In this document: positions 2,528-63,732 of the stretch, piece after piece | How positions within the stretch are numbered: the stretch's first letter is position 1 | Layout of the letters: each line of letters opens with the position of its first letter | Origin: an uncultured Gammaproteobacteria bacterium | GTDB taxonomy: Bacteria > Patescibacteriota > Patescibacteriia > Magasanikbacterales > UBA922 | Direction: 5' to 3' | Assembly (NCBI GenBank): GCA_964519725.1 | Contig: CAZFKS010000004.1 | Coordinates: forward strand, 11,848-75,847 | DNA length: 64,000 nt | Made by a program: the position numbers and the translations under genes | The notes under the pieces: model-generated | What the model saw: only the letters and a program-made list of their open reading frames with translations | Told to the model about the DNA's origin: nothing | Database searches by the model: none

Positions 2528-4561
2528 ATGCTCAAACTAGAAACTTCAGTTACTGAAATTAACCGAGTGGGGGAGACTTTGGCCGCGCGCCTGAAGCGCC
2601 TGGGAATTTTTACGGTGCGCGATCTTTTGTATTATTTTCCGTTTCGGTATGAAGATTTTTCACAGGTGAGTCAGATTCGGGGCCTACAGGCAAATCAATT
2701 GGTGACAATTGCGGTGCGAATTGAAATGATTGCGGCCAAGCGGAGTCCGCGTCGGCGTGCGCTTCTCACTGAAGCCGTGGTGTCAGACGCAAGTGACCGA
2801 TTAAAAGTGGTGTGGTTTAATCAGCCTTATATTGCCAAAACTTTGGCCGTTGGTGACCAGGTGTATTTGTCTGGCAAAGTGACCGTGGATCGATACGGGA
2901 TTTCTTTAGTCAATCCTAGTTATGAGCGGATTAAGCCAGATACAGTGCATACCGCGCGCGTGGTGCCGCTCTATCCACTGACTGATGGGGTGACGCAAAA
3001 ACAATTGCGGTATTTGCTGAGTGAGGTGATTGGTCTCGCGGCGGAAGTGCCAGAGTGGATTCCAGATGAAATTTTAAAACGAGTGGAATTAATTTCTTTG
3101 CCCGAAGCGCTTAAAGAAATTCATTTTCCAGTTAATCAAAAAAGTTTAGCCACTAGTTTAGCGCGGTTAAAATTTGATGAATTATTTTTACTGCAACTGC
3201 GCGCGGAAATGTTGCGGCAGCAATTGGCGCGGGTGAAAGCACCAGTGATTAAATTTTTGGCTGACAAAATTAAAAATTTTGTGGCTGGTTTACCATTTGA
3301 ATTAACCAAAGACCAGCGCGTGGCCGCCTGGGAAATTTTTCAGGATTTGGAAAAAAGCGAACCAATGAATCGGCTGCTGGAAGGTGACGTTGGGTCAGGA
3401 AAAACCGCGGTCGCGGCTATGGCCTTGTTTTTAGCCGCTGAAACTGGGCATCAAGCCGCGCTAATGGCGCCAACGGAAATTTTGGCGAACCAACATTTTG
3501 AAACACTCAGTAAATTTTTTGCAAATAATAATTTTTCAATTAAATTAGTAACGCACAGTAAAGTGGCGAAAAAAAGTGATCGGGAAAAATTATATGAAGA
3601 AATTAAAAGTGGGGAAATTAACATTGTGATTGGGACGCACGCGTTACTTTCTGAGGGTGTGGAATTTAAAAATTTAGGTCTAGTAATTGTAGATGAACAG
3701 CATCGGTTTGGGGTGGCACAGCGGCGATTAGTAAAAGAAAAATCTGGTTTAAAAAACGCGGAGCCGCATTTTTTAAGTATGACCGCGACCCCAATTCCGC
3801 GGTCACTGGCGCTCACTTTGTATGGGGATTTGGCCTTGTCGCAACTGCGCGAAAAACCAGCTGGCCGATTACCAATTAAAACACGGGTGGTGGCGCCACA
3901 CCAGCGCCAAAAGGCGTATGAATTTATTCGCGAGCAAGTAAAAAATGGGCGACAAGTATTTGTCATTTGTCCAACCATTAATGCTGATGAAAAAAAGTCA
4001 GTGACCGTTGAGTATGAACATTTGGCCAATGATGTGTTTAAAGAATTACGGGTCGGATTTTTACATGGCAAAATGAAAGCAGTGGAAAAAGACGCAGCTA
4101 TGACCGCGTTTGCTAGTGGTGCAATTGATATTTTGGTAGCCACGTCAGTGGTAGAAGTAGGGGTGAATATTCCAAACGCCACCGTAATGATGATTGAGGG
4201 TGCTGAAGCGTTTGGACTTGCTCAATTACACCAATTCCGTGGACGGGTGGGTCGGAGTGATTGGCAATCATATTGTTTTTTATTTACTGATTCAGATTCT
4301 GAAAAAGCGAATCAACGTTTGGCATTTTTTGAAAAAACTACGGATGGTTTTGAATTGGCTGAATTTGATTTGGAAACGCGCGGACCAGGTGAAGTGTATG
4401 GCACGGTCCAAAGTGGGCTCATGCAATTAAAATTAGCGACTCTCCAGGACACTGATTTGATTAAAAAAGCGCGCGCGGCAGCCCGGGGGATTGATTTTAA
4501 AAAATATCCAGATTTGAAAAAAGCCGCGGCCAAGTGGGAAGCAGAAACGCACCGTGAATAA
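2528..4561 (+). CDS. recG: ATP-dependent DNA helicase RecG
   Basis: Walker A motif GDVGSGKT, DEQH box (VIVDEQHRFGV), helicase C-terminal motifs, and a RecG-type wedge domain at the N-terminus. Confidence 0.9.
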   Translation: MLKLETSVTEINRVGETLAARLKRLGIFTVRDLLYYFPFRYEDFSQVSQIRGLQANQLVTIAVRIEMIAAKRSPRRRALLTEAVVSDASDRLKVVWFNQPYIAKTLAVGDQVYLSGKVTVDRYGISLVNPSYERIKPDTVHTARVVPLYPLTDGVTQKQLRYLLSEVIGLAAEVPEWIPDEILKRVELISLPEALKEIHFPVNQKSLATSLARLKFDELFLLQLRAEMLRQQLARVKAPVIKFLADKIKNFVAGLPFELTKDQRVAAWEIFQDLEKSEPMNRLLEGDVGSGKTAVAAMALFLAAETGHQAALMAPTEILANQHFETLSKFFANNNFSIKLVTHSKVAKKSDREKLYEEIKSGEINIVIGTHALLSEGVEFKNLGLVIVDEQHRFGVAQRRLVKEKSGLKNAEPHFLSMTATPIPRSLALTLYGDLALSQLREKPAGRLPIKTRVVAPHQRQKAYEFIREQVKNGRQVFVICPTINADEKKSVTVEYEHLANDVFKELRVGFLHGKMKAVEKDAAMTAFASGAIDILVATSVVEVGVNIPNATVMMIEGAEAFGLAQLHQFRGRVGRSDWQSYCFLFTDSDSEKANQRLAFFEKTTDGFELAEFDLETRGPGEVYGTVQSGLMQLKLATLQDTDLIKKARAAARGIDFKKYPDLKKAAAKWEAETHRE

Positions 4562-4595
4562 AAAAGGGAAAACACTGATCAATCAAGTTCAAAGC

Positions 4596-4624
4596 TTGAC
4601 TTTTTTAATGTTTAATTGTATTTT
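4596..4624 (+). promoter_or_regulatory. promoter candidate (TTGACT, 17-nt spacer, TATTTT) for high-GC transcript 1
   Basis: It shares the 'cttgactttttt' -35 context with the promoters at 4975 and 33085 (minus strand). Confidence 0.35.
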
Positions 4625-4631
4625 CTTCATT

Positions 4632-4971
4632 AATTGGGCGACGATGCCCTAGAGGGAGAGAGCCGTGTGGATGATGGTCAACGTAAGCGGCAAGGTTAAG
4701 GAAGTCTGGATCTCCGAGGAAACAAAGGAGAAGCTAACCAGGCCCATCAAAGCTGATGGTCTACACCTGATTGGTTCTAGCTCTGGCGGAGGGCGTGTTC
4801 CTCCGCACGCACCGCGCCGTTAGCGACCACGAGAGTGTCGCGGTCCCGCTAGGGATTCCACGCTGGTCGAGGCTTATCGCCTCCCAGCCTGCCCTCCAAG
4901 AGCGGCCGACTGCTCGTGGAAGGCAGTCAAATCATAAATAAAAGCCTCTGACTAAATGTCAGAGGCTTTTT
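4632..4971 (+). ncRNA. candidate structured RNA, about 340 nt and high-GC, family unknown; may instead carry a 50-aa ORF at 4671..4823
   Basis: Promoter upstream. Dense GC hairpins include gggc-gacgat-gccc, gcggagg-gcgtgtt-cctccgc and gcgac-cacgagagt-gtcgc. No ORF of 60 aa or more in any frame. It ends at the intrinsic terminator 4941-4971 (gcctctgac-taaat-gtcagaggc followed by T5). A small ORF MMVNVSGKVKEVWISEETKEK... begins at 4671 with an upstream AGGGAGAG. Confidence 0.35.
4941..4971. terminator. bidirectional intrinsic terminator
   Basis: A 9-bp GC stem with A-tract on one side and T-tract on the other. The stem sequence gcctctgac/gtcagaggc recurs elsewhere in the window. Confidence 0.6.
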
Positions 4972-4974
4972 AAC

Positions 4975-5003
4975 TTGACTTTTTTGGTTTTGGGTGATTT
5001 AAT
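4975..5003 (+). promoter_or_regulatory. promoter (TTGACT, 17-nt spacer, TTTAAT) for high-GC transcript 2
   Basis: -35 at 4975-4980 and -10 at 4998-5003. It lies immediately downstream of the terminator. Confidence 0.4.
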
Positions 5004-5007
5004 CGCG

Positions 5008-5400
5008 CCTACGCCCAGCGGACTAGCTACCCGCAAGACATGGGCGCGAGGAGATCTCCATGAGTGAAGATGGCGGCGTTAAGCCGACCAAGCCCGGGGT
5101 GATTCGTCCCGGAAACCCCCCGAAAGGGGGCGAAGACGACTCGGGACCGACCACGGTCCCGGAGACGCCGAGATCACGGCGTCGAGTGCCTCGGTCCCTA
5201 CGCACGCCGGGCAGTGACTACGTGCGCGCCCCTGGCCTGACAGAGGGCGAGCCGTAAAGGGTGACACTGTCGCCACCCCGCCAAACTGCGGGGGCAGATT
5301 CCGCTTGATTCGCTCGCAAGAGTTCGAGTCAACAACACTCTCGGCCGCAGCGGAAGCGGCCAAATCCAAAATTAAAAAAAGCCCCGTGGTGGGGCTTTTT
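5008..5400 (+). ncRNA. candidate structured RNA, about 390 nt and high-GC, family unknown; contains a possible 65-aa Pro/Gly/Arg-rich ORF at 5060..5257
   Basis: A chain of independent GC hairpins: cccccgaaaggggg, gggaccg-acca-cggtccc, gacgccg-agatca-cggcgtc, cgcacg...cgtgcg, gggtg...caccc, ggccgc-agcggaa-gcggcc. It ends at terminator 5374-5400 (gcccc-gtggt-ggggc followed by T5). The internal ORF has GAGGAG 6 nt upstream of its ATG, but the peptide is low-complexity. Confidence 0.35.
5374..5400. terminator. bidirectional intrinsic terminator, also serving radA on the minus strand
   Basis: A7 tract, then gccccgtggtggggc, then T5. Confidence 0.6.
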
Positions 5401-5412
5401 AAATTAAACTTT

Positions 5413-6762
5413 TTAAGTGTGCGTAATTAATTCCGCAATATTTTTTACTTTGAGAATTCTTAAACTATCATCTTTTGTTTGTACACTCGCGGCAGTGATC
5501 ACACGCTTCATTCCCAGTGACGCTGCTTCACGGATACGTTTGTCTGAACTGGAAATCTGACGAACCTCACCACCCAAACCAACTTCACCAAAAACTACTA
5601 AATCATTGCCCAAGGCTTTGTCTTTGAATGAACTGGCAATGGCTAGGCACACGGCTAAATCAGCGCCTGGCTCACTAGCGCGCACACCACCAACAATGTT
5701 CACGTAAATGTCGTATTGGCCTAATTGGAGGCCAGCATTTTTTTCCAGGACTGCAGTTAAAACATGTAAACGATTTAAATCAAACCCCGAGGCTTTACGA
5801 ACCGGATAACCAAATACCGTTTTATTTACCAGCGCCTGAACCTCGATGAGCATTGGGCGCGTGCCTTCAAGTAAACAGGTTAAAATACTGCCTGGCACTG
5901 ATTCGCCGCGATCAGCAATGAATACGCCTGCAGGATTTTTGATTTCCGTGAGACCAGATTCGCGCATTTCAAAAATACCAACTTCATCAGTAGCGCCAAA
6001 GCGATTTTTAACGGTGCGGAGTAGACGATAACTGTGGTGACGCTCGCCCTCAAGATATAAAACCGTGTCCACCAAATGTTCAAGAGTGCGCGGACCAGCC
6101 ACTGTGCCTTCTTTGGTCACATGACCAATAATGACAATGGCAATGTTGTAAGTTTTGGCTACATTTAATAATTTGGTGGCCGCAGCGCGGACTTGGGTTG
6201 GGTTGCCAGTTTCACCGGGTAGGTCACTGGAACTAATGGTTTGAATAGAATCAACAATCGCAATGGCGGGCTTTTCGGCTACAATGGTGGCAGTAATAGT
6301 ATCAACATCAGTTTCTGACAGTACTAAAATTTGACCACTGTTTGGCGTGATCCGTTCCGCGCGCAGTTTAATTTGTTCAGCCGATTCTTCCCCAGAAATA
6401 TAGAGAGCGGGTGAAAGTAGGGAAGTCAGTTGGAGGGCCAAGGTGGATTTACCAATCCCAGGTTCTCCGCCTAGTAAAATAAGTGAGCCTGGGACAATCC
6501 CGCCGCCTAACACGCGGTCTAATTCACCTAGGCCAGTGGCCCGGCGTGGTGTATCTGAGGGTTTTACGCTACTCAGCGGGGTGGTTTTGCCAGCTTGTTT
6601 TTTAATTTCAGTGGCAGACGGAATTCCCGCTTTGGTTGGGGCGCTACTAATTGGTTCCTGGGGAATAGTGCCCCACTGACCACATTCTAAACAGCGCCCA
6701 GCCCATTTATGGTACTGCGCGCCGCAATGTGAACACTCGTAGATTGCTTCTGGCTTGGCCAT
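5413..6762 (-). CDS. radA: DNA repair protein RadA/Sms
   Basis: N-terminal C4 zinc finger (CSHCGAQYHKWAGRCLECGQW), Walker A GGEPGIGKST, and a Lon-like C-terminal domain. Confidence 0.9.
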   Translation of the reverse strand: MAKPEAIYECSHCGAQYHKWAGRCLECGQWGTIPQEPISSAPTKAGIPSATEIKKQAGKTTPLSSVKPSDTPRRATGLGELDRVLGGGIVPGSLILLGGEPGIGKSTLALQLTSLLSPALYISGEESAEQIKLRAERITPNSGQILVLSETDVDTITATIVAEKPAIAIVDSIQTISSSDLPGETGNPTQVRAAATKLLNVAKTYNIAIVIIGHVTKEGTVAGPRTLEHLVDTVLYLEGERHHSYRLLRTVKNRFGATDEVGIFEMRESGLTEIKNPAGVFIADRGESVPGSILTCLLEGTRPMLIEVQALVNKTVFGYPVRKASGFDLNRLHVLTAVLEKNAGLQLGQYDIYVNIVGGVRASEPGADLAVCLAIASSFKDKALGNDLVVFGEVGLGGEVRQISSSDKRIREAASLGMKRVITAASVQTKDDSLRILKVKNIAELITHT

Positions 6763-8573
6763 TAAATTTTATTTATGCATTTCTCGTACAGTGGAAAGGC
6801 TTTAGTAACGTAACTGAAATTTCTGACCTCGTCAATTGACTTAGCTAATTTTTTCTTAAACCCACCACAACCAGCATTGTAGGAAGCAAAGGTGCCTTTA
6901 ACCAGGTCGTCACCAGTTAAACCAGCTGCTTGCGCACAGGCATAATCATCTTTAACATGTAAGACAGTCACTTTGAGATTGGTGGTGGTATCAAGTAATT
7001 CAGGAATATTGTAACAGGTCTCTTTAATTTTTATGCCGCGCGCCCCATCGCAAGTACTGTTGCCATTAAAAGTGATTTGACCAGCCCCAAAACCATGAGT
7101 AAAGCGCCAATCTAGACCATAGTCAGGTGGGCTGTTGACAAATGTATCCGCATCATCGTTTATTGTTTTGGCTGAATTATATTTTTTATAATCATACTGA
7201 CTTGAGTCAGATACTGGTGGAGTAAAAGTCGCGCCACTGTATTTTTTACCACTGATTAAAAAAGTTTGACGGGCTTCAACTGGTTTAGTGTTGCGCCGGA
7301 AATTTTCATCATGACCAATTAAATTTTGTTTTCCACCTGATTCCATGGCCATGATGGTGTCCATGAAACATTTGGGCAGGCCAGCGTCTTGGCCAAATTT
7401 TTGCGCGTTGGCAATGGTCTCTGCTTGGCTGGGTGGGGCTGTGCCAGTAATTGATTGGAAAATGGCCGGGTCAATGGTGGTGTAATTAATTTCTTGCCCA
7501 AATACAAACGGTAAACTAATTTCCGCAAAGGAAACCAGCTTTGGGTTTACGGTGTATAAAATTGTGTACCCACCAATAGCGAGCATGAGGCCACTGATTG
7601 ATTGGACAATCATGGTGCGGGCTTCGTCTTTACTGCCGGTTGGAGTGGCCCACAAAAAGCCAGCAAAAATGAGCCGCGCTGTAGCGGCAATGCCAGCAAT
7701 GATGACAATGTATTTAAAACTGGCAGCTAAATATTCACCAATAAAAGGCATGGAAATAAAGACACTGCCGTCTGGTCTGGTTTCAACATCATCAACCGTT
7801 AAATTAGAAAAATTTAAACCGGGAATTTTAATTTTTGGAACCGGCTTAGAAACTAACGTTGCAATTTCATCATTACTTAATTTTTTTTGCACAATTTCGG
7901 CAGCTCCAGGAACTTCACTCGTAATACCTGAAGCACCAGAATTATTTAGGACAATTCCTTGTTGTGAACCAAAGCCTTCTTGGGTAATGGCCTGGAAAAT
8001 TAATTTATAACCAGTTGAATTGGTGTGCAGCACATCGCCACCATATTTTTCGTCCATGATATCATCGCCATTGGTGTCAAGGGTGTTGTAGAGATTGATA
8101 AACAAGTCAATTCCACCTGGTTTACCAGTCAGCCACGTATGATTTTTTTTCAAAAATTCAGCCTGCGCTTTATATGGTTGAGCACTGACCACAATGACGC
8201 GGGTATTTTGCGTTTCAGCCGCAGTGAAAATTTTCATTAAATTTTTTTGTCCAGTATTAACCGCGGCATTATCAATAAGGCCGTTCAGCCCTGCGTAGAT
8301 TACTAGGTCGGTGTAACCTTTGCCACTAACATTAGTTTCGTATTGCTTAACAAAATCAGCCGCATCGTCACCACTGTGTGCAAAACAATTAACGGTTGAG
8401 TCAGGCAAAAGTTCGGCTAATTTTTGGTCATAGTGGTAAGTTTTACACAGCGCTTCAAATGAAGATGAGCCGATCCAAGCAATTTTTTTACCTGCGGCTA
8501 AAGAAGAATAGGGAAGTAGGCTTAAAAGTAAGCTTAAACTCAGTACTATTTTTTTGACGTTTGCCAAGGTCAT
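6762..8573 (-). CDS. secreted, membrane-anchored multidomain protein: N-terminal SGNH/GDSL-like hydrolase-like region, central pilin-like TM module, C-terminal lytic-transglycosylase-like (SLT-like) domain
   Basis: Signal peptide, then the central block PKIKIPGLNFSN...PFIGEYLAASFKYIVIIAGIAATARLIFAGFLWA. The C-terminal motifs MAMESGG...GFGAGQ are reminiscent of the SLT catalytic Glu-Ser region. Domain assignment is by eye only. Confidence 0.5.
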   Translation of the reverse strand: MTLANVKKIVLSLSLLLSLLPYSSLAAGKKIAWIGSSSFEALCKTYHYDQKLAELLPDSTVNCFAHSGDDAADFVKQYETNVSGKGYTDLVIYAGLNGLIDNAAVNTGQKNLMKIFTAAETQNTRVIVVSAQPYKAQAEFLKKNHTWLTGKPGGIDLFINLYNTLDTNGDDIMDEKYGGDVLHTNSTGYKLIFQAITQEGFGSQQGIVLNNSGASGITSEVPGAAEIVQKKLSNDEIATLVSKPVPKIKIPGLNFSNLTVDDVETRPDGSVFISMPFIGEYLAASFKYIVIIAGIAATARLIFAGFLWATPTGSKDEARTMIVQSISGLMLAIGGYTILYTVNPKLVSFAEISLPFVFGQEINYTTIDPAIFQSITGTAPPSQAETIANAQKFGQDAGLPKCFMDTIMAMESGGKQNLIGHDENFRRNTKPVEARQTFLISGKKYSGATFTPPVSDSSQYDYKKYNSAKTINDDADTFVNSPPDYGLDWRFTHGFGAGQITFNGNSTCDGARGIKIKETCYNIPELLDTTTNLKVTVLHVKDDYACAQAAGLTGDDLVKGTFASYNAGCGGFKKKLAKSIDEVRNFSYVTKAFPLYEKCINKI

Positions 8574-32559: not shown

Positions 32560-32610
32560 AGCCATGAATGACTGTCTTTTGTTGCGCCTCTGATTCGTCA
32601 GAGGCAGCGT
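32560..32610 (-). terminator. tandem-hairpin terminator module at the 3' flank of a high-GC gene
   Basis: On the minus strand: gcctctga-cgaa-tcagaggc, then gacagtcattcatggctgtc, then T6. It is homologous to the 3' flank at 33090-33162. Confidence 0.5.
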
Positions 32611-32663
32611 CCCAGAACTCGGCGCGGCGTCATGCGGGTTCAATGGGAAGCGCCAGGACGGCG

Positions 32664-33069: not shown

Positions 33070-33100
33070 CAATAAAAAAGTCAAGGTACAAAATGAAAAA
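33070..33100 (-). promoter_or_regulatory. promoter candidate (cTTGACTTTTTT context) for gene 32664..33065
   Basis: The minus-strand sequence reads ccttgacttttttattgttttatgctaagttt. It is the same -35 module as at 4596 and 4975. Confidence 0.3.
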
Positions 33101-33162
33101 ACAGCCACCTAAGTGACTGTTTTTTCATTGGGCCCCTGACACGTCAGAGGCAGCGTCCTGGA
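33090..33162 (-). terminator. terminator module at the 3' flank of gene 33225..33773
   Basis: Shares the 16-mer gtcagaggcagcgtcc and the A-tract/acagcc...gactgt/T-tract hairpin with 32560-32610. Confidence 0.45.
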
Positions 33163-33224
33163 TCTCGGCGCCGATTGCTCGGCACCAAGCTCAGACAGGA
33201 GTGATCCGGAGAGGATCACGTTGC

Positions 33225-34039: not shown

Positions 34040-34068
34040 TTGACAACCGCGCCGGCGTCTGATATTAT
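34040..34068 (+). promoter_or_regulatory. sigma70 promoter (TTGACA, 17-nt spacer, TATTAT) for rplJ-rplL
   Basis: The -35 lies inside the palindrome ttgtcaactattgacaa. Confidence 0.5.
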
Positions 34069-34069
34069 C

Positions 34070-34214
34070 TTCACATCAACCGCAGACAGTAGCTTTTCCC
34101 GCCAGGGAACTTAAATACGCTACCGAGGTCACATTTCACTTAAGAAATGTTCTTCTTAAAGGTCGCTGCGGTAATCAGCGCTTTTTTATTTTAAAAAGCG
34201 CACAATTACCAAAT
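34070..34214 (+). promoter_or_regulatory. ribosomal protein L10 leader-like structured 5' UTR (possible autoregulatory attenuator)
   Basis: A 145-nt leader with long-range complementarity (accgcagac...gtcgctgcgg) and an agcgc + T6 attenuator-like element directly before rplJ. This is the usual position of the L10(L12)4 binding leader. Confidence 0.35.
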
Positions 34215-54066: not shown

Positions 54067-54139
54067 GCTGCTGTAGCTCAGTTGGTAGAGCGCGTCCATG
54101 GTAAGGACGAGGTCACCAGTTCAATCCTGGTCAGTAGCT
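54067..54139 (+). tRNA. tRNA-Thr (anticodon GGT), the integration target of the downstream islet
   Basis: Hand-folded. Acceptor GCTGCTG/CAGTAGC with one G-U pair, anticodon stem CGTCC/GGACG, loop ATGGTAA, T-loop TTCAATC. Confidence 0.75.
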
Positions 54140-54144
54140 CTAGT
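54106..54144 (+). repeat. attL-like 39-bp direct repeat (3' half of tRNA-Thr(GGT) plus 5 nt)
   Basis: gacgaggtcaccagttcaatcctggtcagtagctctagt is identical to 54927..54965. Confidence 0.85.
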
Positions 54145-54800: not shown

Positions 54801-54926
54801 GTTTTAATAAAGTGAAATTTACTCATTTCCATATAGATGGAAATAGAGAATAAACCAAGTTTTATTAAAAACAAGGTTGTTGCAGGTTCTGCCATTCAGG
54901 GTTTTTAACTGAGTAAAAAGTAGAAA

Positions 54927-54965
54927 GACGAGGTCACCAGTTCAATCCTGGTCAGTAGCTCTAGT
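54927..54965 (+). repeat. attR-like 39-bp direct repeat (partial tRNA-Thr 3' end)
   Basis: Identical to 54106..54144. It is followed by the hairpin aaaccgcc-atct-ggtggttt + T7, the likely original tRNA terminator. Confidence 0.85.
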
Positions 54966-63667: not shown

Positions 63668-63695
63668 ATCTAAAACACCCCGCGCACGAGGTGTT
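63668..63695 (+). terminator. intrinsic terminator
   Basis: aaaacacctcgtgcgcggggtgtttt-type hairpin (aaaacaccccgcgcacgaggtgtttt). Confidence 0.55.
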
Positions 63696-63732
63696 TTAGA
63701 TTGTGGCCGAACGAGTCGGCCGTGCGGCGGAC

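Follow-up and report, generated by a model that had tools for sequence, protein, structure and literature searches.

Tandem GC-rich units at the recG/radA junction of a Magasanikbacteria-like genome as probable accessory gene cassettes

Two tandem units, rich in guanine and cytosine (GC) and dense in hairpins, lie between recG and radA in a 64,000-nucleotide (nt) stretch of contig CAZFKS010000004.1 (GenBank assembly GCA_964519725.1; this whole stretch is hereafter the window). What does such a locus specify, structured RNAs or small proteins? A preliminary description of positions 4596-5400 had proposed novel RNAs or small-protein genes. In our reading, units 1 and 2 are probably two accessory gene cassettes that lie in tandem at the recG/radA junction, where they were inserted, and are transcribed independently, rather than stand-alone structured RNA genes such as those of RNase P or 6S RNA. 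The small-protein proposal is supported for unit 1, for which the RNA proposal is not; for unit 2 the RNA proposal lacks proof. On sequence grounds, the host chromosome is Magasanikbacteria-like and belongs to the Patescibacteria (candidate phyla radiation): the nearest named RadA matches were Candidatus Magasanikbacteria proteins, and the window RecG was at best 55% identical to that of any GTDB species representative.

The genes recG (2528-4561, + strand) and radA (5413-6762, - strand) are convergent, and the 851-nt spacer between them holds both units. Their parts, with open reading frames (ORFs) sized in amino acids (aa) and untranslated regions abbreviated UTRs, are:

4596..4624, + strand: unit 1 promoter, with -35 TTGACT (4596-4601), a 17-nt spacer and -10 TATTTT (4619-4624)
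4631..4664, + strand: unit 1 5' UTR, with Shine-Dalgarno site GAGGGAG (4652-4658); its start is inferred from the -10 element, not mapped
4665..4823, + strand: unit 1 small ORF, 52 aa (MWMMVNVSGKVKEVWISEETKEKLTRP...), taken from the ORF list, with a homologous peptide in a relative (L082)
4824..4939, + strand: unit 1 3' UTR module of four consecutive hairpins, the last (hairpin d) GACTGC 4908-4913 / GCAGTC 4923-4928, then AAATC 4929-4933
4940..4975, + strand: unit 1 terminator, a 13-bp stem with a 5-nt loop and a T-run (inverted repeat I3, 100% complementary)
4975..5003, + strand: unit 2 promoter, with -35 TTGACT (4975-4980), a 17-nt spacer, TG (4995-4996) and -10 TTTAAT (4998-5003)
5010..5059, + strand: unit 2 5' UTR, beginning GCGCC as in other cassettes, with Shine-Dalgarno site GAGGAG (5048-5053); its start is inferred
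5060..5257, + strand: unit 2 ORF, 65 aa, rich in Pro, Gly and Arg, with an ATG 6 nt after GAGGAG
5258..5375, + strand: unit 2 3' UTR module of four hairpins, the last (hairpin d) GGCCGC 5343-5348 / GCGGCC 5356-5361, then AAATC 5362-5366
5376..5400, + strand: unit 2 terminator, a 10-bp stem (inverted repeat I10)

Most of what had been described from the letters was recovered. The region is GC-rich, although at 57% over 4596-5400 (58% in the body of unit 1 and 64% in that of unit 2, against a window mean of 43.8%) rather than the approximately 62% first given. The unit 1 promoter was listed by a consensus scan; the unit 2 promoter at 4975 is also present in the sequence, but was not listed by the strict scan because its -10 element has T at position 2. 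The TG at 4995-4996 gives it an extended -10, and the block is conserved in the cassette of a relative (L083). Both intrinsic terminators exist, and because each is symmetric (A-run, stem, T-run) both should be usable in both directions; that of unit 2 is also positioned to end the convergent radA (stop at 5413). Unit 1 indeed lacks an ORF of 60 aa or more, the largest being 52 and 56 aa. The two small ORFs preceded by ribosome-binding sites were likewise found, but for unit 1 the GTG at 4665 (52 aa), which sits 6 nt after GAGGGAG, is a likelier start than the ATG at 4671 (50 aa) originally chosen. The impression of hairpin density was borne out, as both units folded far more stably than shuffled sequences on both strands. 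On the + strand the z-score was -5.3 for unit 1 and -6.0 for unit 2, and none of 100 shuffles was as stable; the - strand values were -5.8 and -4.3, respectively.

The arrangement did not arise as an error of one particular assembly, since an independent Logan assembly of the source sample also contains recG, unit 1 and unit 2. In the Logan assemblies of SRR11567520 (L001, L092), a short-read contig breaks exactly within the palindrome of the unit 2 terminator (approximately 5381-5408), and cassette ends may often fall at contig ends in short-read data of this kind.

To place the units among known RNAs, the whole window was scanned with Rfam 15 (4227 models) at the gathering score, and positions 4500-5500 also at E values up to 10. 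There were no gathering-score matches in 4500-5500, and the best permissive matches (E 0.18-0.2) were only terminator look-alikes; neither unit thus matched a described structured RNA family, as no model reached E 0.1 apart from such look-alikes. ARAGORN detected seven transfer RNAs (tRNAs) in the window and neither a transfer-messenger RNA (tmRNA) nor a tRNA-like gene in 4596-5400. The earlier failure to recognise known RNA signatures in either unit therefore stands.

Relatives were found by following the flanking radA, and their contigs were compared at the same junction (percentages are RadA identities to the window):

L085/L086, 70%: radA and recG abut with no spacer (empty site)
L082, 83%: a GC-rich cassette whose ORF is 51 aa long, and a gene of 800 aa
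L083/L084, 84%: a cassette with a 134-aa ORF
L087, 86%: a cassette with an 85-aa ORF
L088, 85%: a cassette with a 115-aa ORF

The content differs between the strains sampled and the site is empty in L085, so the recG/radA junction is, on the evidence of these contigs, an insertion hotspot with strain-variable content. No direct repeats flank units 1 and 2.

The comparison with L082 bears directly on unit 1. A six-frame search of the whole region against the collected loci yielded the L082 peptide as the only protein match, together with a similarity to the L088 3' UTR. By BLASTP, the unit 1 peptide matched the ORF at the syntenic position in L082 with an E value of 2e-8 (14 of 40 residues identical, 27 of 40 positive). 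The window peptide begins MWMMVNVSGKVKEVWISEETKEKLTRPIK... (MWMMVNVSGKVKEVWISEETKEKLTR... in the pairing) and its L082 counterpart MFVWMNVSGKIKQIWVSKEEFARLNKHPEK... (MFVWMNVSGKIKQIWVSKEEFARLNK...), and the two have similar lengths (52 and 51 aa). Codon differences between them are mostly synonymous (AAC/AAT, GTA/GTC, GAA/GAG, CTA/CTC) or conservative (V/I, E/Q, E/K, K/R, R/K). Such coding-type conservation had been named in the preliminary description itself as a result that would speak against a structured RNA. Because the L082 homologue differs in this synonymous and conservative way, the sequences support unit 1 as a small-protein gene.

Composition is consistent with this for part of the frame. 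A codon model was built from the remaining GC-rich cargo ORFs, of which 11 of 12 scored 0.22-0.54 bits/codon in frame in leave-one-out controls, and shifted sense frames scored about -0.3 to -0.6. The first 27 codons of unit 1 scored +0.53 bits/codon, with a GC content of 0.77 at third codon positions (GC3) and 0.31 at second positions (GC2), and the ORF body had no excess of RNA structure (z -0.4). A start codon with a ribosome-binding site, conservation at the amino-acid level and coding composition in the first 27 codons were thus all found in unit 1, which likely makes a soluble protein of 52 aa. The ORF was missing from the public protein collection, and a search of 1.84e9 representative proteins returned one match, to a spurious tandem-repeat ORF on its low-complexity tail.

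What unit 1 shares with the other cassettes lies mainly on either side of the cargo. All cassettes at the recG/radA junction open with a promoter of the form CTTGACTTTT(TT). The block CTTGACTTTTTTGGTTTT...TGATTTAAT.GCGCC is common to unit 2 and L083, the L083/L084 promoter being nearly identical with different cargo. L082 and L088 share another version, distinct from the unit 2/L083 block, and a related promoter also precedes the unit 1-homologous cargo in L082. The window contains three exact copies of the 12-mer CTTGACTTTTTT, all of them at the starts of GC-rich cassettes (4595 +, 4974 + and 33085 -); the third copy (33074..33085, - strand) heads a cassette with a 133-aa ORF. The unit promoters also resemble those ahead of tRNA genes in the window.

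The -35 block TGACTTTT also forms an inverted repeat, as its 3' arm, together with AAAAGTCA 9-14 nt upstream (L082 7100-7125, L083 4965-4990, L087 2135-2165 on the - strand, and window 4955-4985). Because the -35 block lies in an inverted repeat, the promoter overlaps a weak terminator-like hairpin or an operator-like palindrome.

On the downstream side, the stretch from stop codon to terminator in these cassettes is a string of three to five separate hairpins, and in unit 1, unit 2 and L088 this module begins at the stop codon, which abuts it and is aligned with its start. The unit 1 3' UTR (z -5.7) is 74% identical to that of L088 over approximately 130 nt, with one internal hairpin swapped for a different stem at the same place, and yet the L088 cargo (115 aa) is unrelated; the unit 2 3' UTR is alignable with those of L083, L087 and L082. 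When the full 3' UTRs were analysed with MAFFT and RNAalifold, hairpin d and the terminator were the only structures retrieved, the hairpins upstream of them being too divergent in sequence to align. Much of the hairpin density that had drawn attention to the region therefore belongs to a modular 3' UTR plus terminator.

Hairpin d is the last of the string, followed by A(A)ATC and the terminator, and its stem occurs as GACTGC/GCAGTC, GGCCGC/GCGGCC and GGTCGT/GCGACC. In six sequences, 30 of 30 cells pair and both sides change in three of five pairs; none of 500 shuffles reached the covariation score, and in slid registers pairing dropped to 0-40%. We regard this as good but not overwhelming evidence for a conserved stem. 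A custom composite scan (GC hairpin, AATC, terminator), with 20 locally shuffled windows as control, gave three hits in the window (one in each unit and one at 63.7 kb on the - strand) versus none in each of the shuffled windows. The third site (63678..63721, - strand) closes another GC-rich cassette. The motif was present in the cassette of every close relative, and in distant loci there were two unrelated matches, one of them a tRNA T-arm. By these alignments and scans, the shared 3' UTR hairpin is a conserved, undescribed element.

The modules and the cargo do not travel as a fixed set. The homologous cargo of unit 1 and L082 is flanked in the two strains by promoter versions and 3' modules that are not the same, which indicates that modules and cargo reassort. 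Among 14 cargo proteins compared all against all, only the unit 1/L082 pair was related.

Taken with these shared modules, each cassette comprises a predicted strong, native-type sigma-70 promoter module (CTTGACTTTT...) with a putative transcript start near GCGCC, then a GC-rich 5' UTR with a Shine-Dalgarno site and a small ORF, and closes with a hairpin string of approximately 120 nt from the stop codon, the conserved hairpin with AAUC, and an intrinsic terminator. The strong promoter of each unit would drive synthesis of a short mRNA whose small ORF (MWMMVNVSGKVKEVWISEETK... in unit 1, MSEDGGVKPTKPGVIRPGNPPK... in unit 2) is translated. The 3' hairpin array may protect this mRNA from 3' exonucleases and, with the terminator, may keep read-through out of the convergent genes recG and radA. 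Homology could be supplied by the conserved flanking modules, or a specific site, for exchange of cargo between strains by recombination; we infer this mechanism from the pattern of replacement. A role of the cargo in conflict with phages or hosts is a guess, made by analogy to orphan genes in other organisms that likewise vary among strains.

Several results weigh against the cassette reading, and some of them lend themselves to other explanations. For unit 2 in particular, we infer from sequence that it is the same kind of mRNA cassette as unit 1, but an explanation in which it is a stand-alone structured non-coding RNA (possibly along with the non-conserved part of unit 1), its ORF being an accident of high GC, has to be considered. 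The 65-aa ORF has been called as a gene in public data, as a singleton, and has no homologue among 5.8e9 proteins, PDB sequences or profile libraries; at the DNA and six-frame level unit 2 has none among the loci compared, nor at the DNA level in phage and plasmid collections. Its codons have no third-position GC excess (GC1/GC2/GC3 of 0.70/0.65/0.71), and at +0.06 bits/codon it is narrowly the best of six frames, barely above the others. Its body is strongly structured (z -4.5), and we roughly estimate, without a formal calculation, that at 68% GC some quarter of all frames would stay open for 65 codons by chance. Structure, however, does not tell coding from non-coding cargo, because the undoubtedly coding 151-aa and 133-aa ORFs of the window are equally structured (z -5.3 and -3.9), and we dropped fold z-scores as a discriminator on this account. 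There is also no Rfam match and no unit 2 homologue in which covariation could speak for an RNA. The GAGGAG site is well spaced from the ORF, the end of the ORF coincides with the start of the shared 3' module as in coding cassettes, and the unit 1 ORF is conserved as protein. We consider a non-coding RNA to be an unlikely explanation. The ORF body was not a second copy of the 3' module either, local alignments between them being no better than those of shuffled sequences. For the ORF itself, translation falls a little short of an even chance, a decaying remnant is rather less probable, and a transcript acting only as RNA is doubtful.

Decay could also account for both units, as remnants of horizontally acquired GC-rich genes, frameshifted or truncated, in which promoter and terminator survive although the gene no longer has a function. 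The coding signal of each ORF is confined to its first half: the last 25 codons of unit 1 have no coding signal (-0.18 bits/codon), and the two halves of unit 2 score +0.20 and -0.10. The C-terminal halves of the unit 1 and L082 peptides do not align, and L082, the single homologue of unit 1, has a GC3 of 0.84 throughout its ORF. The window copy of unit 1 may thus be frameshifted or decaying at its C-terminus, as its last half, unlike that of L082, lacks a coding signal. Against decay, both ORFs are open with intact ribosome-binding sites, that of unit 1 matches its homologue in length, the promoter, 3' module and terminator are intact and like those of relatives, and some 25-34 codons are too few for firm half-ORF scores; we consider this explanation, too, to be unlikely. 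An integron-like or other site-specific capture system, in which the 3' hairpin with AAUC would be an attC-like recombination site acting as folded single-stranded DNA and not an RNA element, is improbable. It would fit the replacement of cargo between strains with a 3' hairpin module kept through compensatory changes, the unit 1 and L082 cargo with different promoter and 3' modules, and another cassette of the window that is bounded by a 40-bp direct repeat of a tRNA-Thr 3' end. However, each cassette has its own promoter and terminator, the cassettes are scattered in both orientations between housekeeping genes, there is no integrase or recombinase among ten neighbouring proteins, and units 1 and 2 lack flanking direct repeats. 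The hairpin-AAUC motif is moreover absent from the cassettes at 32.6k, 33.1k and 54.7k, which have other 3' hairpins; this and the missing recombinase count against the cassette reading as well, as does the fact that the covariation of hairpin d is based on only three independent stem versions.

Small toxin loci, such as type I toxin-antitoxin systems in which a structured mRNA controls a toxic peptide, would likewise be small ORFs on highly structured, separately transcribed and strain-variable RNAs. Type I systems are defined by a small hydrophobic membrane peptide with an overlapping antisense RNA. Here, both peptides are hydrophilic with no membrane-spanning stretch, the consensus scan of the region listed no minus-strand (antisense) promoter-like site, and there was no match in PADLOC, Pfam, PHROGs or NCBIfam; we hold this alternative to be very improbable. 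Accessory cassettes remain the explanation that we favour. A bolder version of it would have the clade keep a pool of GC-rich orphan genes as standardised 'plug-in' cassettes with the same promoter and 3' modules, exchanged at fixed hotspots (gene junctions and tRNA 3' ends), the 3' hairpin being the recognition site of a recombination or capture machinery and the cargo coming from an almost unsampled GC-rich replicon (host, phage or plasmid); units 1 and 2 would then be two members of this pool. We hold this to be speculative and rather improbable.

Among known systems, the closest analogue would be the phage moron. Hendrix and colleagues reportedly described morons as autonomous promoter-gene-terminator units between genes of lambdoid prophages. 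The cassettes are moron-like in that each consists of one small gene between a sigma-70-type promoter and a factor-independent terminator of its own (here by sequence consensus), inserted between two otherwise adjacent genes, with a base composition unlike its flanks (58-64% versus 44% GC), and in that relatives may have the cassette, have another one or have none (the empty site of L085). They differ in that the host is a Patescibacteria chromosome, with recG, radA, TsaD, Fpg and tRNAs as neighbours and no recognisable prophage, in that there is no match for them in PHROGs, viral contigs or phage records, and in that they share promoter and 3' UTR modules, which lie outside the definition of a moron. 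Three defining features of morons were thus found, and the phage context was not.

With integron cassettes and their attC sites, the units share short, mostly single-gene and often orphan cargo, the tandem placement, a structured and imperfectly conserved 3' hairpin, and replacement from strain to strain. Integron cassettes are, however, promoterless and carry attC repeats (R''/L''-L'/R') with a GTTRRRY core; the cassettes here have their own promoters and terminators, mixed orientations and scattered sites, with no integrase among the ten adjoining proteins, and no formal search for an attC core was made. Repetitive extragenic palindromic (REP) sequences, bacterial interspersed mosaic elements (BIMEs) and 3' UTR stem-loop stabilisers also place GC-rich hairpins between stop codon and terminator, at convergent junctions and at several loci, and the cassette 3' hairpins, by analogy, probably share their effect on mRNA. 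REP and BIME elements are recognised by a palindromic unit that is dispersed in many copies and goes together with a RAYT transposase. The hairpins here instead travel with a variable cargo gene, with only three hairpin-AAUC copies in 64 kb; a RAYT-type transposase was not encountered, although no search aimed at one was made. Finally, the units resemble RNase P RNA, tmRNA, 6S RNA, signal recognition particle RNA and large non-coding RNAs in size (340-400 nt), in GC-richness within a lower-GC genome, in having their own promoter and terminator and in stable predicted folds, but they differ in lacking an Rfam match or tmRNA call and in the protein-type conservation of unit 1.

The units are not alone in the window. 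A likeness in composition to other 'foreign cassettes' had been suggested, and GC-rich islands elsewhere bear it out: there are at least six further single-gene cassettes of about 56-67% GC, with their own promoter and terminator, located between housekeeping genes or beside tRNA genes:

about 1.27-1.83 kb: cassette with a 148-aa ORF
31.85-32.5 kb: cassette with a NUDIX domain
32.55-33.09 kb, - strand: cassette with a 133-aa ORF
33.09-33.83 kb, - strand: cassette with a 151-aa ORF
54.2-54.8 kb: cassette with a 109-aa ORF
63.65 kb to the window end, - strand: cassette

The cassette ORFs have GC3 values of 0.64-0.87, versus 0.40 for recG and radA, which indicates that they evolved as coding sequence in a GC-rich background. 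The ten proteins neighbouring the cassettes were housekeeping proteins (TsaD, Fpg, CN hydrolase, P-type ATPase) or had no recognised domain. Searches of the cargo proteins against Pfam, PHROGs, PADLOC and NCBIfam returned nothing except the NUDIX domain of the 31.8k cassette, and the 151-aa cargo (33.2k), in spite of its strong coding signal, has no homologue among 5.8e9 proteins, a further point against our reading. The 3' UTRs of two adjacent minus-strand cassettes (32575-32640 and 33130-33190) share another block (GCGCCGAG.TC..GGACGCTGCCTCTGAC... hairpin, then terminator), which is a second version of the 3' module. On either side of the 109-aa cassette at 54 kb lies an exact 40-bp copy of the 3' part of tRNA-Thr(GGT), the two forming a direct repeat 821 bp apart (54103-54142 and 54924-54963, attL/attR-like). 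This is a signature of site-specific integration; there is no integrase inside the element.

In all, about 8% of the 64-kb window consists of small GC-rich orphan genes with their own promoter and terminator that are replaced between strains. Candidate-phyla bacteria, with their tiny genomes, probably live attached to hosts, and the parts that differ from strain to strain are likely to be those of importance in host interactions or phage conflict. As gene callers mishandle these cassettes, the class is largely invisible in current catalogues. The 3' UTR hairpin element is a testable candidate for a new mRNA-stabilising or recombination signal.

Searches beyond the junction gave little. The unit DNA had a single weak match among 86 Patescibacteria loci (nhmmer, blastn), which pointed to the L082 peptide, and no match in phage and plasmid collections (blastn). 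In the recG synteny comparison, even the GTDB species representative with the closest RecG (55% identity) is too distant to carry the units. Viral contigs contained no matches to the module patterns and no confirmed match to the peptide pattern, the PDB sequence search returned nothing credible, and we found no account of such cassettes in Patescibacteria in the literature. In metagenomes, a 21-base pattern of the 3' hairpin module (GGTCGTnnnGCAGAGCGACCAATC) was detected in three near-identical high-GC soil contigs, once per contig and inside long ORFs (L089 747-770, L090 3650-3673, L091 1044-1067). This sole metagenome match is probably due to chance, there being no similarity outside the pattern.

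Some minor observations concern the junction in other genomes. Unrelated GC-rich cassettes lie directly downstream of recG in L003 (8100-8890) and L007 (7400-7850), with 62-64% GC in genomes of 40-43% GC, their own promoter and terminator, and RecG proteins 52-54% identical. In L083, a called 199-aa 'gene' (4286-4885) starts ATG-TGA and reads through the terminator, evidently having been called with a code that reads TGA as sense, and in L082 an antisense 76-aa ORF (6867-7097) was called in place of the conserved 51-aa ORF. Within the window, a candidate ribosomal protein L10 leader (RF00557) at 34062-34196 scored exactly at the gathering threshold (44 bits) and adjoins tRNA-Glu and the 33-kb cassette cluster.

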